Assembly (NCBI GenBank): GCA_964449645.1
Contig: CAYVBN010000353.1
Span: forward strand, 1 to 31,967
Source: an uncultured Hyphomicrobiales bacterium
GTDB taxonomy: Bacteria; Pseudomonadota; Alphaproteobacteria; Rhizobiales; Xanthobacteraceae
Direction: 5' to 3'
Length of the DNA stretch: 31,967 nucleotides
Position numbers and translations under genes: made by a program. Positions 10,948 through 13,805 of the stretch are shown here, piece after piece. The notes under the pieces were generated by a model. That model ran no database searches, was not told the DNA's origin, and was given only the letters and a program-made list of their open reading frames with translations. The stretch's first letter is position 1. Every line of letters begins with the position of its first letter.

Positions 10948-11793
10948 GTCGTGTGGACACTTATCGTGTCCATAGCACGATAGCTGCGAGAGTGACGACT
11001 GCGCGGTAATTTCGGGCGGTCTTTTCGAAGCGGGTTGCAACGCGTCGGAACTGCTTGAGCTTACTGAAACAGCATTCCACCAGATGTCGCTGGGCGTAGA
11101 GATGCTTGTCGAGCGGATATTTGAGCGCCCGTGACGGGTTGTTGGGAATCACGGCCAACGCTCCCTTGGCGGCGATGGCTTGCCGCAGGTGGTCCGCGTC
11201 ATAGGCTGTATCGGCCATGACGACCTCGGCGGGCAGTTCCTCGATCAGGGCTGCAGCTTGTGGTGCATCACCCTTCTGACCCGCGGTCAGTATGAACCGC
11301 ACGGGGCATCCCAAGCCTCGAACGGCCATGTGGATCTTGGTGCTCAGGCCGCCGCGCGAACGGCCGATGGCTTGATCTTCAGACCCCCTTTTTTAGCCCC
11401 GGCAGCGGGCTGATGGGCGCGGACGATGGTGGAATCAACGATCAGATATTCGAAGTCCGGATCATCGGACATCGCCTCGAAGATGCGCCACCAAACACCT
11501 TTGGTGCTCCAGCGACTGAAGCGCCGGAAAACGCTGTTCCAATCGCCAAACACCACGGGAAGATCACGCCAGGGCGCGCCCGTCCGCACAATCCATAGGA
11601 CGCCCTCCACGAACATTCGGTTGTCGCGTCCAGTTGATCCCCTTTGGTCGGGCCGGCCGATGATCAGCGGTGCCATCCGATCCCACGCCGCGTCGCTCAA
11701 AACCAAACGGTCCATCACACCCAAGACTGCCTCCCAAAACGCAGTCTTGAATCTGATTTGCCGCTTCAAGGGAATCCCAAGTGTCCACACGAC
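10948..11793 (-). mobile_element. IS5-family insertion sequence (IS427-group-like), 846 bp
   Basis: Perfect 15-bp terminal IRs GTCGTGTGGACACTT (10948-62)/AAGTGTCCACACGAC (11779-93), flanked by CTAG on both sides (10944-47, 11794-97). An alternative reading is 10947-11794 with a TA duplication. Confidence 0.92.
10961..11715 (-). CDS. IS5-family transposase, split orfA/orfB joined by a -1 frame change
   Basis: orfA is MDRLVLSDAAW...WIVRTGAPWRDLP...IVDSTIVRAH. orfB is GRSRGGLSTKIH...MADTAYD...RHLVECCFSKLKQFRRVATRFEK. A6G5 run at the junction (+ strand 11384-11394). Confidence 0.9.
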
Positions 11794-12159
11794 CTAGACC
11801 TCGTTCCGGAACACGAAGCCCCGCGGCCCGCGGTAGAAGCGGCCGGTCAGGGTCCGCCGCAAGGTCCCGGTCACCACGCCGATCTCGACCGAAAAGGCGC
11901 ACACGTGGGCTCTGCCGGGCCGGTCGTGCCGGCAGTCGAATTTGCGCAGTGAGTGTATCTCGAAGCGGTCGGTGCCGGCCTGGCGAACCCGCTCGACGGC
12001 TTCGGCGCCTCCGGTCTCGGCCAGGAAATCGAGCGCGCTCCGAACTCCGTCAGCCAGTGCGGCGGCGAAGGCCCCGCTCATCTCGCGCTCGCTCGGCTCG
12101 TCGGTGGTGACGCCGGTCACCAGACCCAAAAGCACGACCGGCACCACCATCGCGCGCAT
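11794..12159 (-). CDS. Hypothetical exported protein (121 aa)
   Basis: N-terminal hydrophobic stretch and two Cys. Its TAG stop coincides with the IS-flanking CTAG. Confidence 0.65.
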   Translation of the reverse strand: MRAMVVPVVLLGLVTGVTTDEPSEREMSGAFAAALADGVRSALDFLAETGGAEAVERVRQAGTDRFEIHSLRKFDCRHDRPGRAHVCAFSVEIGVVTGTLRRTLTGRFYRGPRGFVFRNEV

Positions 12160-12374
12160 TTCAGCCCCAAAACGCTATTCCGGCAGAGGTGCAATGATGC
12201 CACAGGGGAATTTCCGCCTCGCTGAGCCGATCACTCGCATTTTAGCGATCCCGGAAAGCCTGCTCCGATCTCGGGCACGCGTCCCGAGCACAAAATACCG
12301 AACCATCTGTGGGTTGCCCGGAACCTGGTTCGAGGTTCGCCATCAATGATATAAGGCGAATTCGGAGGCATACG

Positions 12375-12758
12375 GTGCCCGACCGAGGCAAGAAGCGAGG
12401 CTGGAGCCCATTGCGGCGCATCACCGCCTGGGTCGTTGCCTATGCGCTTGTCCTCCACGCCATCCTCGGACTGGCGCCGCTCCACCACGAGGGCGGCCAC
12501 GCCCTCGCAACGGAGTTCTGCGCGGGCACCAGCGGACCCGGCACATCCGGCCACAGCGGCCAGTCGGGGCATTCCGGAAGCTGCTGCGACCTTTGCCTCG
12601 CCTGCGGTTGCGCGGCGTTCGTCGCTCCCGATGCTGTTCGTGCTACATCCGAGCCTTCGGACCCGGATCGCATTCGATGGTCGTCTCTGCATGACGTCGG
12701 GCGGTATCTCCCCGGACTGTTCAAGGAACAAGCCCGAGCACCTCCGCTGACGGCCTGA
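12375..12758 (+). CDS. DUF2946-family leader protein (CruR/CutF-like) with C-terminal RAPP motif
   Basis: GTG 12375 with GGAGG at 12364-68. Basic N-terminus, TM segment ITAWVVAYALVLHAILGL, EFC, CCDLCLACGC, and the end QARAPPLTA. Confidence 0.85.
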   Translation: MPDRGKKRGWSPLRRITAWVVAYALVLHAILGLAPLHHEGGHALATEFCAGTSGPGTSGHSGQSGHSGSCCDLCLACGCAAFVAPDAVRATSEPSDPDRIRWSSLHDVGRYLPGLFKEQARAPPLTA

Positions 12759-12810
12759 CATCGGCGGCTCGCCCGCCCCATTCGCCGTCTCACGCCATCG
12801 GCAGCGGAGG
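12741..12810 (+). promoter_or_regulatory. Predicted SD-sequestering mRNA structure between the DUF2946 leader and the next gene
   Basis: CCTCCGCTG (12741-49; the Pro-Pro-Leu codons) is the exact reverse complement of CAGCGGAGG (12802-10), which contains the SD of ATG 12816. Confidence 0.7.
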
Positions 12811-12815
12811 ACTTC

Positions 12816-13805
12816 ATGTCCATTCGTACGCTCCGCGCAGTCCTGCCGGGACTTGCGCTGATACTGGTTCCAAGCGGAATCCAAGCCCACGAGATCGTGG
12901 GCAAGAGATTCTTTCCGGCCACGCTCGCGATCGACGATCCCGGGGTCAACGACGAACTCGCCTTCCCGACCATCTCCGTCTTCAAGAACGAGGACGATCC
13001 TTCGGCTCGCGAGTTGGACGTCTCGGGAGAGTTCTCGAAACGCATCACCGAAGACTTCGCGGTTTCGTTCGAGCCCACCTGGACTCACCTCCGCGCTCCG
13101 GGCGGGCCGAACGGGACCGACGCATCGGGCTTCCAGAATCTCGAAACGACCTTCAAGTATCGCCTTTATAAAAATCCGACGCACGAGTTCGTGCTTTCGG
13201 CCGGCCTCAACGTCGAGTGGGGCGGCAGCGGCGCTCAGCAGGTCGGAGCCGAAAGCTTCACCACCTACACGCCAACGGTCTTTTTCGGCAAAGGCCTCGG
13301 CGACCTGCCGGAGACGCTGAACTGGGCCCGCCCGTTCGCGATCACCGGTCAGGTCGGCTATGCGATCCCGGGATCGAGATCGAGCACCACGTTCGATCCC
13401 GACACGGGCGATCTCGACTTCGAGCAGCACCCCGATGTCCTGGTCTGGGGCGCATCGCTCCAGTACAGCCTGCCCTATCTGAACGCCTCGGTGGTCGATC
13501 TCGGGCTGCCGGACTTCGTCAATCGGCTGATCCCGATCGTCGAGGTTGCGCTGCAGACGCCTGTCGCCAACACTTTGACCTCGGGCACGCTCACCACCGG
13601 AACGGTCAATCCCGGCGTGCTCTGGGTCGGCGACACTTACCAGGTCGGGCTCGAAGCGATGATCCCGATCAACCGGGCGAGCGGGACCAGCGTAGGCGCC
13701 ATCGCCCAGATCCATTTTTATCTCGACGACATCTTCCCCCATTCGATCGGCCGGCCGATCTTCGCCGTGTCCGACAGCACAGGGAGGCCGAGCTTCGGCA
13801 ACTGA
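12816..13805 (+). CDS. Uncharacterised exported protein, probable outer-membrane beta-barrel with mature N-terminal His
   Basis: Signal peptide ending GIQA|HEIVG. Alternating amphipathic strands such as LDVSGEFSKRIT, FAVSFEPTWTH, LETTFKYRLY, VWGASLQYS and YQVGLEAMIP. Confidence 0.7.
   Translation: MSIRTLRAVLPGLALILVPSGIQAHEIVGKRFFPATLAIDDPGVNDELAFPTISVFKNEDDPSARELDVSGEFSKRITEDFAVSFEPTWTHLRAPGGPNGTDASGFQNLETTFKYRLYKNPTHEFVLSAGLNVEWGGSGAQQVGAESFTTYTPTVFFGKGLGDLPETLNWARPFAITGQVGYAIPGSRSSTTFDPDTGDLDFEQHPDVLVWGASLQYSLPYLNASVVDLGLPDFVNRLIPIVEVALQTPVANTLTSGTLTTGTVNPGVLWVGDTYQVGLEAMIPINRASGTSVGAIAQIHFYLDDIFPHSIGRPIFAVSDSTGRPSFGN

Follow-up and report, generated by a model that had tools for sequence, protein, structure and literature searches.

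In Bordetella pertussis, the DUF2946 protein CruR (Bp2923) is the product of a copper-responsive upstream open reading frame (uORF) that forms the first gene of a copper-acquisition operon, and it carries a CXXC motif about 45 (+/- 1-2) residues before an RAPP motif, which lies three residues before the stop codon (PMC9426467). Arrest at RAPP is needed for expression of the downstream genes and is relieved by copper, both RAPP and CXXC have been shown to be necessary, regulation occurs via Rho-dependent termination in a spacer of 162 nucleotides (nt), and the export signal is dispensable (PMC9426467). In Rhodobacter capsulatus, the DUF2946-like exported leader CutF, which possesses a CXXXC motif and a PPP motif countered by elongation factor P (EF-P), regulates translation in cis: copper induces a stall, and stalling melts a stem-loop shielding the downstream Shine-Dalgarno (SD) sequence (PMC9973294; bioRxiv 10.1101/2025.02.05.636593). 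Disruption of an SD-sequestering stem-loop by a stalled ribosome, with induction of the downstream gene, is also how SecM, MifM, VemP and ApdA/ApdP function (PMC7897499, PMC10987492, PMC10951233), and this principle is established, with CutF as its example within DUF2946. Here, a leader gene is analyzed which lies directly upstream of genes for a 329-amino-acid (aa) protein, CopC and CopD in a DNA stretch of 31,967 nt, in the following called the window, from an uncultured Hyphomicrobiales bacterium of the Xanthobacteraceae (contig CAYVBN010000353.1 of assembly GCA_964449645.1).

As judged from its sequence, the leader possesses the CruR geometry, with RAPP placed 46 residues behind a Cys cluster and separated from the stop codon by three residues. 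In the class of operons beginning with the gene for the 329-aa protein, the RAPP codons are the anti-SD of this gene; the analysis shows the sequence anatomy, a conserved and covarying structure, a fixed geometry and a class-specific codon for the second proline of the motif (Pro2). We consider it fairly probable that the leader constitutes a translational switch that would be opened by ribosome arrest and through which the 329-aa/copC/copD operon would probably be ON in low copper.

Such a switch would join a CruR-type sensor to an output of the SecM/CutF type, with arrest site and anti-SD being the identical nucleotides, a view that is well supported by covariation. Common to CruR and the locus in the window are the family, the spacing between CXXC and RAPP, the three-residue tail and the leading position in a copper-acquisition operon. 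However, CruR acts through Rho over its long spacer and SD shielding has not been reported for it, whereas in the window the spacer measures 57 nt and the arrest codons pair with the SD; furthermore, the genes downstream of CruR encode a TonB-dependent receptor (TBDT) and a PepSY_TM protein instead of the 329-aa protein, CopC and CopD. With CutF, the locus shares a DUF2946-like leader and an SD-shielding stem-loop, but the anti-SD of CutF, CTTC, is intergenic and separate from the PPP stall codons, and its target is the detoxifying oxidase CutO (PMC9973294). The ApdA/ApdP group resembles the locus in its arrest of the RAPP/RAGP type, during which residue three of the motif occupies the P site; in the window, the motif is given by sequence and the arrest is predicted. 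SecM, MifM, VemP and the Apd proteins differ in that they monitor Sec or YidC, are released by translocation force and control sec or yidC genes, whereas the genes downstream of the leader in the window are the 329-aa gene, copC and copD. In erm and cat leader attenuators, a drug-stalled ribosome occupies one strand of a hairpin and frees the next SD by a relay of alternative hairpins; the switch in the window would differ in that one hairpin is opened directly, with no relay. A full-text literature search found no report of arrest codons, or of tail or stop codons, of a DUF2946 leader serving as anti-SD, and no report was found of arrest codons as anti-SD for SecM, MifM, VemP or ApdA/ApdP.

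The predicted leader passes the threshold of Pfam family PF11162 marginally (23.8 bits, E 7.8e-5, cut-off 23.7), and its Bradyrhizobium orthologue (L030:2559-2939) reaches 49.4 bits. Its reading frame is open from 12309, and GTG 12375, with GGAGG 6 nt upstream, is the most likely start, giving a protein of 127 aa, equal to the ATG-started orthologue L030:2559-2942. CXXC occurs as C71-D-L-C74 and as C74-L-A-C77 within CCDLCLACGC; since the cluster is also readable as C70xxxC74, it is ambiguous with respect to the CXXXC of CutF. R121-A-P-P124 is followed by L-T-A and the stop codon, which is the C-terminal layout of the CruR family, and its two prolines differ from the C-terminal PPP of CutF. 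An alignment of the 329-aa protein led to 80 loci that belong to different species of Pseudolabrys, Bradyrhizobium and related bacteria; 72 of them, together with the window, provided the 73 leader-gene junctions analyzed. The distance from C71xxC74 to R121, 46 residues in the window, is 44-47 residues in 70 of 73 orthologues, and a three-residue tail is likewise present in 70 of the 73 junctions. A hydrophobic N-terminal stretch, RRITAWVVAYALVLHAILGLAPL (residues about 17-35), is seen by eye in the translation and is a candidate for the export signal or N-in/C-out membrane segment described for the CruR family. As in the CruR family, the leader is the first gene of a copper-related operon, and the order on the same strand of leader, 329-aa gene, copC and copD fused to a cytochrome c domain is identical in L030.

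In the window, the codons CGA GCA CCT CCG CTG (12735-49), which encode R-A-P-P-L, are in frame with the open reading frame ending in TGA at 12756-58, as the initial annotation had it. The segment CCTCCGCTG (12741-49) is perfectly complementary, in antiparallel orientation, to CAGCGGAGG (12802-10), which contains GGAGG (12806-10) separated by a 5-nt spacer, ACTTC, from ATG 12816, and the two inner helices proposed at the same time, GACGGC (12749-54)/GCCGTC (12784-89) and GGCGG (12763-67)/CCGCC (12773-77), are both exact. The complementarity of 9 nt stands, but all helices cannot form together as drawn, because G12749 had been claimed twice; as it pairs with C12789 in the minimum free energy (MFE) structure, the SD helix comprises 8 bp (12741-48 with 12803-10). 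When 12735-12818 was folded with RNAfold, all three helices were recovered in the MFE and centroid structures at -36.5 kcal/mol (z = -2.86), an energy matched by 2 of 200 shuffled sequences, and with wider flanks z was -1.6. A single GC-rich sequence is only suggestive, and so the case rests on comparative data. By partition-function folding, the SD core in the window is paired with the Pro-Pro and first tail codons with P = 1.00. A stem-loop shielding the downstream SD, as in CutF, is indicated by MFE and covariation, with the anti-SD located in coding instead of intergenic sequence.

The hairpin is shared by about 90 relatives and is present in nearly all of the 80 orthologous loci and in 18 junctions from metagenomes. 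On the same strand upstream of the 329-aa gene, 78 of the 80 loci possess an open reading frame matching the search pattern R[AGS]P[PG]-tail-stop. The remaining two have variant motifs, RASP (L062:2920-3006) and TGPP (L060, about 700-860); both retain the RNA pairing, which in L060 is CUCCGCAC/GUGCGGAG with 8 bp, and these motifs may be natural arrest-weakened variants or assembly errors. Over the 73 junctions, the spacer has a median of 58 nt (interquartile range 57-59) and the distance from the first proline of the motif (Pro1) to the SD a median of 66 nt. A three-tier hairpin is found in every clade: the basal tier joins Pro-Pro and the codon after it to (N)GCGGAG or CGGAG, the second tier joins the tail and the stop codon to the bases immediately 5' of the basal 3' strand, and the cap in the orthologues is a GGCGGCC-N-GGCCGCC hairpin, which is 94-97% paired. 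Tail peptides vary freely (LTA, LFV, QLT, RFA, YGV, HAV), with the 3' arm tracking each of them, for instance cuuuucguc/gacgaaaa for LFV, caguugacgug/cacgucaac for QLT, uucgc/gcgaa for RFA, uacggc/gccgua for YGV and cac/gug for HAV. The aligned orthologues lack the 12-nt insert present in the 3' arm of the window.

In order to quantify the pairing, alignments were compared with controls in which the pairing partners had been slid. In a plain MAFFT alignment of the Bradyrhizobium-type clade, 80.7% of cells were paired (slid controls 31-51%) and 12 pairs showed double changes, and in that of the Pseudolabrys-type clade, which includes the window, 80.2% were paired (slid 27-44%), with 11 double-change pairs and none of 500 shuffles as good. 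When 56 junctions were aligned to the covariance model R1, 81.7% of cells were paired (slid 32-52%), double changes occurred in 19 of 22 pairs, and the covariation score was 0.272 versus 0.172 +/- 0.009 (0 of 500 shuffles); this alignment is fitted to the structure and hence biased towards it, a bias from which the two MAFFT alignments are free. In an alignment-free test, own arms gave -17.7 kcal/mol versus -14.3 kcal/mol for swapped arms (0 of 5000 permutations), and the mean MFE z over the 73 junctions was -2.46. When all 72 junctions were placed in one plain MAFFT alignment, RNAalifold recovered the apical hairpin only, since the clades differ in their bulges and the two arms had not been aligned correctly, a difficulty resolved by the clade-wise alignments and the covariance model. 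The absence of the pairing from orthologues, which the initial annotation had named as evidence that would speak against it, was therefore not what was found; the pairing is present and covaries. A tblastn search for more distant DUF2946 junctions from plasmids returned none.

The contribution of the proline codons themselves was evaluated by counting pairs in a fixed register in 93 distinct junctions (72 genomic loci, the window, 18 from the metagenome scan and six distant ones). Position 2 of Pro1 and positions 1-2 of Pro2 are paired with the three G's of GGAG in 91-93 of the 93, a pairing that is forced because the peptide and the SD fix those bases. Outside this core, the Pro2 wobble base pairs with the base 5' of GGAG in 73 junctions (G-C 62, A-U 4, G-U 7), the first base of the next codon pairs with the base two positions 5' of GGAG in 71 (C-G 45, G-C 7, U-A 5, U-G 11, and others; 0 of 5000 permutations), and the Pro1 wobble base pairs with the A of GGAG in 46 (U-A 41, A-U 4, G-U 1). 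The four A-U junctions combine the unusual SD GGUG with CCA at Pro1 and belong to two lineages (L027 and L150/151/155/157). A register variant, in which Ala GCU and Pro1 CCG provide a CUCCGC strand, occurs in L026, L034, L039, L043 and L068. Over the 73 analyzed junctions, the SD core is paired with the segment formed by Pro-Pro and the next codon with a mean P of 0.68, exceeding 0.5 in 50 of them. Chance might be considered as the source of such complementarity, since CCNCCN against GGAG provides three of four pairs for free in a GC-rich genome, the CC/GG pairs being forced by the peptide and the SD consensus; in addition, the single-sequence z values are modest (-1.6 to -2.9) and the pairing probability of the SD is high even after shuffling. 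Covariation is seen, however, in the tail helices and in the pairs on either side of the forced core, own arms are superior to swapped ones, the length of the spacer is fixed and the mean z over the junctions is clearly negative. The covariation counts thus contradict chance complementarity, which can hardly be credited.

According to the initial annotation, the choice of CCT-CCG would be under dual selection for peptide and RNA. Among proline codons of the same loci, background usage is CCG 49%, CCC 28%, CCU 12% and CCA 11%, and CCU makes up 8% at the first proline of other Pro-Pro pairs; within the motif, CCU accounts for 45% of Pro1 codons (naive binomial p = 3e-12) and CCG for 77% of Pro2 codons. 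A sister class provided a comparison: in Bradyrhizobium, a second DUF2946 leader, ending in R[AG]PP-x[FLIV]S-stop, is found upstream of a TonB-dependent receptor gene (pcuA/pcuB-like; L030:5772-5890, L015:5776, L061:5762, L063:5764, L065:5761, L069:5827), and this TBDT class was enlarged by a metagenome scan to 58 distinct junctions (L081-L138 listed). Its spacer is 83-96 nt long, and its SD, AGGAA, is bound by a strand made up of the final two sense codons, the stop codon and two further bases (UUCCUGACG with CGUCAGGAA; mean P 0.88, above 0.5 in 52 of 56), whereas the P of Pro-Pro pairing is 0.00. CCG at Pro2 is specific for the 329-aa class (73 of 91, 80%, versus 8 of 58, 14%, in the sister class, where CCU makes up 53%; Fisher p 4e-16), and it pairs with the C 5' of GGAG, so that the CCG half of the proposal fits RNA selection. 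CCU at Pro1, in contrast, is equally enriched in both classes (37 of 91, 41%, versus 27 of 58, 47%; Fisher p 0.5), although Pro-Pro is not the anti-SD in the sister class; SD pairing alone therefore does not explain CCU, its excess was discarded as proof of dual selection, and the co-occurrence of GGUG with CCA is the sole positive sign of RNA constraint at this wobble position. Over-use at Pro1 of the rare codon CCU (41-47% against a background of 12%; loci L001-L160) characterizes the arrest motifs of these leaders irrespective of the pairing partner of the SD, and in the TBDT class CCU is over-used at Pro2 as well; arrest may be influenced by a tRNA or decoding effect. A third leader type (RGPP-ALT or RGPP-GLI) was observed on the minus strands of L053 (1207-1294) and L039 upstream of another TonB-dependent receptor gene; Pro-Pro again pairs with the SD (CCUCCGG/CCGGAG in L053, CCGCCCGG/CGGGAA in L039), the SD differs with the Pro2 codon, and the covariance-model match is 30.8 bits.

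From these features we infer, as follows, that the ribosome is arrested, that arrest opens the SD in the cell, and in which direction copper acts. In free mRNA, the last 18 nt of the uORF, comprising Pro-Pro, three tail codons and the stop codon, would form the 5' arm of a long hairpin whose 3' arm ends in the GGAGG of the 329-aa/copC/copD operon, and initiation would be blocked. On RAPP, ribosomes are known to stall when Pro1, residue three of the motif, is in the P site (PMC10951233, PMC10987492). By comparison with RAPP structures and toeprints, CCT (12741-43) would occupy the P site and CCG (12744-46) the A site, and a footprint from about -12 to +15 (12729-12756) would cover the complete 5' strands of helices H1 and H2. 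As the whole 5' arm would lie inside this footprint, the SD, at +65, would be freed on arrest, at a distance sufficient for a second ribosome to load; the earlier idea of a stalled ribosome covering the anti-SD agrees with this geometry. After release, the ribosome would terminate three codons later and leave, and the hairpin would re-form. Masking the footprint as unpaired reduced the mean energy required to open the SD-AUG region from 10.0 to 6.8 kcal/mol (p = 3e-12); in 37 of the 73 junctions the reduction was 3 kcal/mol or more. Passive translational coupling, in which any ribosome at the end of the uORF melts the hairpin, the downstream gene is translated in step with the uORF and no regulated arrest is involved, might be considered as well, since stop and tail lie within the 5' arm, so that terminating ribosomes must open the hairpin, and since unfolding-based coupling is common in operons. 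Coupling requires neither R[AG]PP nor the Cys cluster, the spacing or the three-residue tail, all of which are conserved, and this explanation is accordingly very improbable.

Several observations weigh against an arrest-opened hairpin. The SD is predicted to pair mainly elsewhere in 23 of the 73 junctions, and in roughly half of the orthologues the A of GGAG faces a base with which it does not pair. The probability of the SD being paired was dropped as the main statistic because it is weak (0.84 for real junctions versus 0.76 with shuffled upstream sequence), reflecting low specificity in GC-rich RNAs, which is why partner identity, covariation and opening energies were relied upon. Masking the footprint gained only 0.7 kcal/mol in the window itself (12.4 to 11.7), since SD and AUG can be captured again by a local hairpin (12804-27). 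This hairpin, which joins the SD and spacer to codons 1-4 of the 329-aa gene, is not conserved and has an MFE of -12.3 kcal/mol, the second strongest of the 73 (median -6.1); it could keep the operon in the window tightly off or add a layer of control. A second DUF2946 leader is encoded on the minus strand of the window (17888-17517, 123 aa, ending in RGPPALA-stop with codons CGC GGC CCG CCT) and is followed by a spacer (17516-17452) and the gene for a PCuAC copper chaperone (17451-16924, minus strand). A search for pairing between its Pro-Pro codons and the SD found none (fold z -0.89), so that the design is not universal in the DUF2946 family. The stop codon of this second leader lies within a GCCUGAA/UUCAGGC hairpin, after which comes a GCCGCCG/CGGCGGC hairpin.

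Also to be set against SD shielding is that for CruR of B. pertussis, whose motif geometry the leader shares, Rho dependence and not SD shielding has been demonstrated (PMC9426467). In a corresponding CruR-type transcriptional polarity, the arrested ribosome would shield a Rho utilization (rut) site or block Rho, its release would allow Rho to terminate transcription ahead of the 329-aa gene, and the hairpin would be secondary, affecting pausing or stability; both modes may coexist. The spacer is C-rich and G-poor (GC skew -0.35 at 12740-12799), and no intrinsic terminator was found in 11900-13000. On the other hand, rut sites need unstructured RNA, whereas the spacer is strongly structured and, with 57 nt, far shorter than that of B. 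pertussis, and covariation keeps the SD in a basal helix in the 329-type, the TBDT-type and the second TBDT-linked junctions, which a purely Rho-based mechanism does not need. Transcriptional polarity as the main output is judged unlikely.

If the hairpin is opened by arrest, the direction of the copper response has to be considered. The gene content of the operon is that of copper acquisition: CopC and CopD are copper importers (PMC7558416), the PCuAC gene is 3 kb away in the window, and in Bradyrhizobium the operon adjoins a DUF2946-TBDT unit resembling the pcu operon induced by copper starvation. In low copper, arrest would probably be the default, and copper bound to the Cys cluster 46 residues upstream would, by analogy with CruR, release it, so that genes for copper acquisition would be switched ON when copper is scarce and OFF when the supply suffices. 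This direction is favored because of the CruR-like geometry, the strong RAPP module, the CopC/CopD importers, the nearby PCuAC gene and the pcu-like neighbor, and the earlier assignment of stalling to ON and of release to OFF fits the motif geometry and the gene content. Copper-assisted pulling during export, proposed in the same annotation as an example of release, finds no support here, and the export signal of B. pertussis CruR is dispensable (PMC9426467); taken as a whole, the interpretation given there is partly supported. The opposite polarity, in which copper prolongs the stall and copper excess induces the operon for resistance, would follow CutF, which functions in this way with an SD-shielding stem-loop (PMC9973294; bioRxiv 10.1101/2025.02.05.636593); CopC and CopD were named resistance proteins, and CCDLC can also be read as CXXXC. 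However, RAPP is an intrinsically strong arrest module and not an EF-P-dependent PPP as in CutF, the Cys-to-RAPP spacing and the three-residue tail follow CruR, and the neighbors PCuAC, TBDT and the CopCD importer (PMC7558416) are of the acquisition type. Induction by copper excess is, on this evidence, rather unlikely.

The first gene that would be regulated by the switch always directly follows the leader, ahead of copC/copD, and its 329-aa product has more than 6000 homologues (P0001-P0120 among them) with about 70% identity across genera, the closest database protein being from a metagenome-assembled genome of the Xanthobacteraceae. The N terminus of the protein resembles a signal peptide and continues with H-E-I-V-G, and an all-beta structure is predicted; searches of Pfam (extended to E values of 10), NCBIfam and PDB profiles were without a match, and its AlphaFold model is poor (predicted local distance difference test score, pLDDT, 33). 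Coordinates of the features are collected in Table 1. No sigma-70 promoter was found in 11900-13000, and a search of the whole window against Rfam gave zero matches at the gathering threshold. About 590 nt upstream of the leader, an IS5-family transposase gene split into two open reading frames (DUF4096, DDE) is located on the minus strand (10961-11790); it may have displaced or supplied the operon promoter.

Table 1. Features of the leader, its hairpin and the downstream operon in the window.
Feature	Position	Strand	Basis or remark
Leader SD GGAGG	12364..12368	+	6 nt 5' of GTG 12375; read from sequence
Leader open reading frame (uORF1), CruR-type DUF2946, 127 aa	12375..12758	+	Pfam PF11162, translation
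Cys cluster CCDLCLACGC (C70, C71, C74, C77, C79), putative copper-binding site	12582..12611	+	Translation
RAPP arrest-motif codons CGA GCA CCT CCG	12735..12746	+	Sequence, translation
Helix H1, 5' strand = anti-SD CCUCCGCU (Pro1, Pro2, two bases of Leu codon)	12741..12748	+	MFE, centroid, pair counts
Helix H2, 5' strand GACGGC, tail codons	12749..12754	+	MFE; tail helices covary in orthologues
Leader stop codon TGA; GA pairs with UC 12782-83	12756..12758	+	MFE
Apical G+C hairpin GGCGG/CCGCC	12763..12777	+	RNAfold
Helix H2, 3' strand GCCGUC	12784..12789	+	Sequence, RNAfold
Window-specific insert separating the 3' strands of H2 and H1; 12794-96 and 12800-02 form a small GCC/GGC side stem	12790..12802	+	RNAfold
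Helix H1, 3' strand AGCGGAGG, holds SD GGAGG (12806-10) of 329-aa gene	12803..12810	+	MFE, centroid
Alternative local SD and AUG hairpin GCGGAGGAC/GUCC.AUUCGU	12804..12827	+	Folding
First regulated gene (predicted), 329-aa protein, predicted exported and beta-rich	12816..13805	+	Homologue search
copC, 118 aa	13808..14164	+	Pfam CopC E 1.2e-24
copD fused to c-type cytochrome domain, 651 aa	14196..16151	+	Pfam CopD 1.8e-24, Cytochrome_CBB3 1.5e-12

Sensing of metals by nascent DUF2946 peptides has been described recently, and the two model cases seem to differ, CruR employing Rho and CutF an intergenic stem-loop. In the arrangement described here, the stall codons themselves would hide the next ribosome-binding site, which is the most compact form possible, and it would account for a tail that is fixed at three residues yet free in sequence. 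As a tentative generalization, in a large alphaproteobacterial branch of CruR/DUF2946 leaders the ribosome footprint might be the switch, with the strand from the P-site proline codon to beyond the stop codon serving as anti-SD in at least two registers. In one of these, Pro-Pro, as a mimic of the CCUCC of 16S rRNA, would pair with GGAG (329-aa/CopCD operons and one TBDT type), and in the other the last two sense codons and the stop codon would pair with AGGAA (pcuA/pcuB-like operons). Synonymous codons of the motif and the tail would then be under selection at the RNA level, and many CruR-type operons would be controlled at initiation instead of, or besides, by Rho. This provides a sequence rule for predicting translationally controlled DUF2946 operons, and phenotypes are predicted from purely synonymous changes in the arrest motif. 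SD pairing is not the only source of the codon preference seen at the arrest prolines, for which a further cause must exist. The relevance would lie in copper acquisition by soil and symbiotic Bradyrhizobium and Pseudolabrys.

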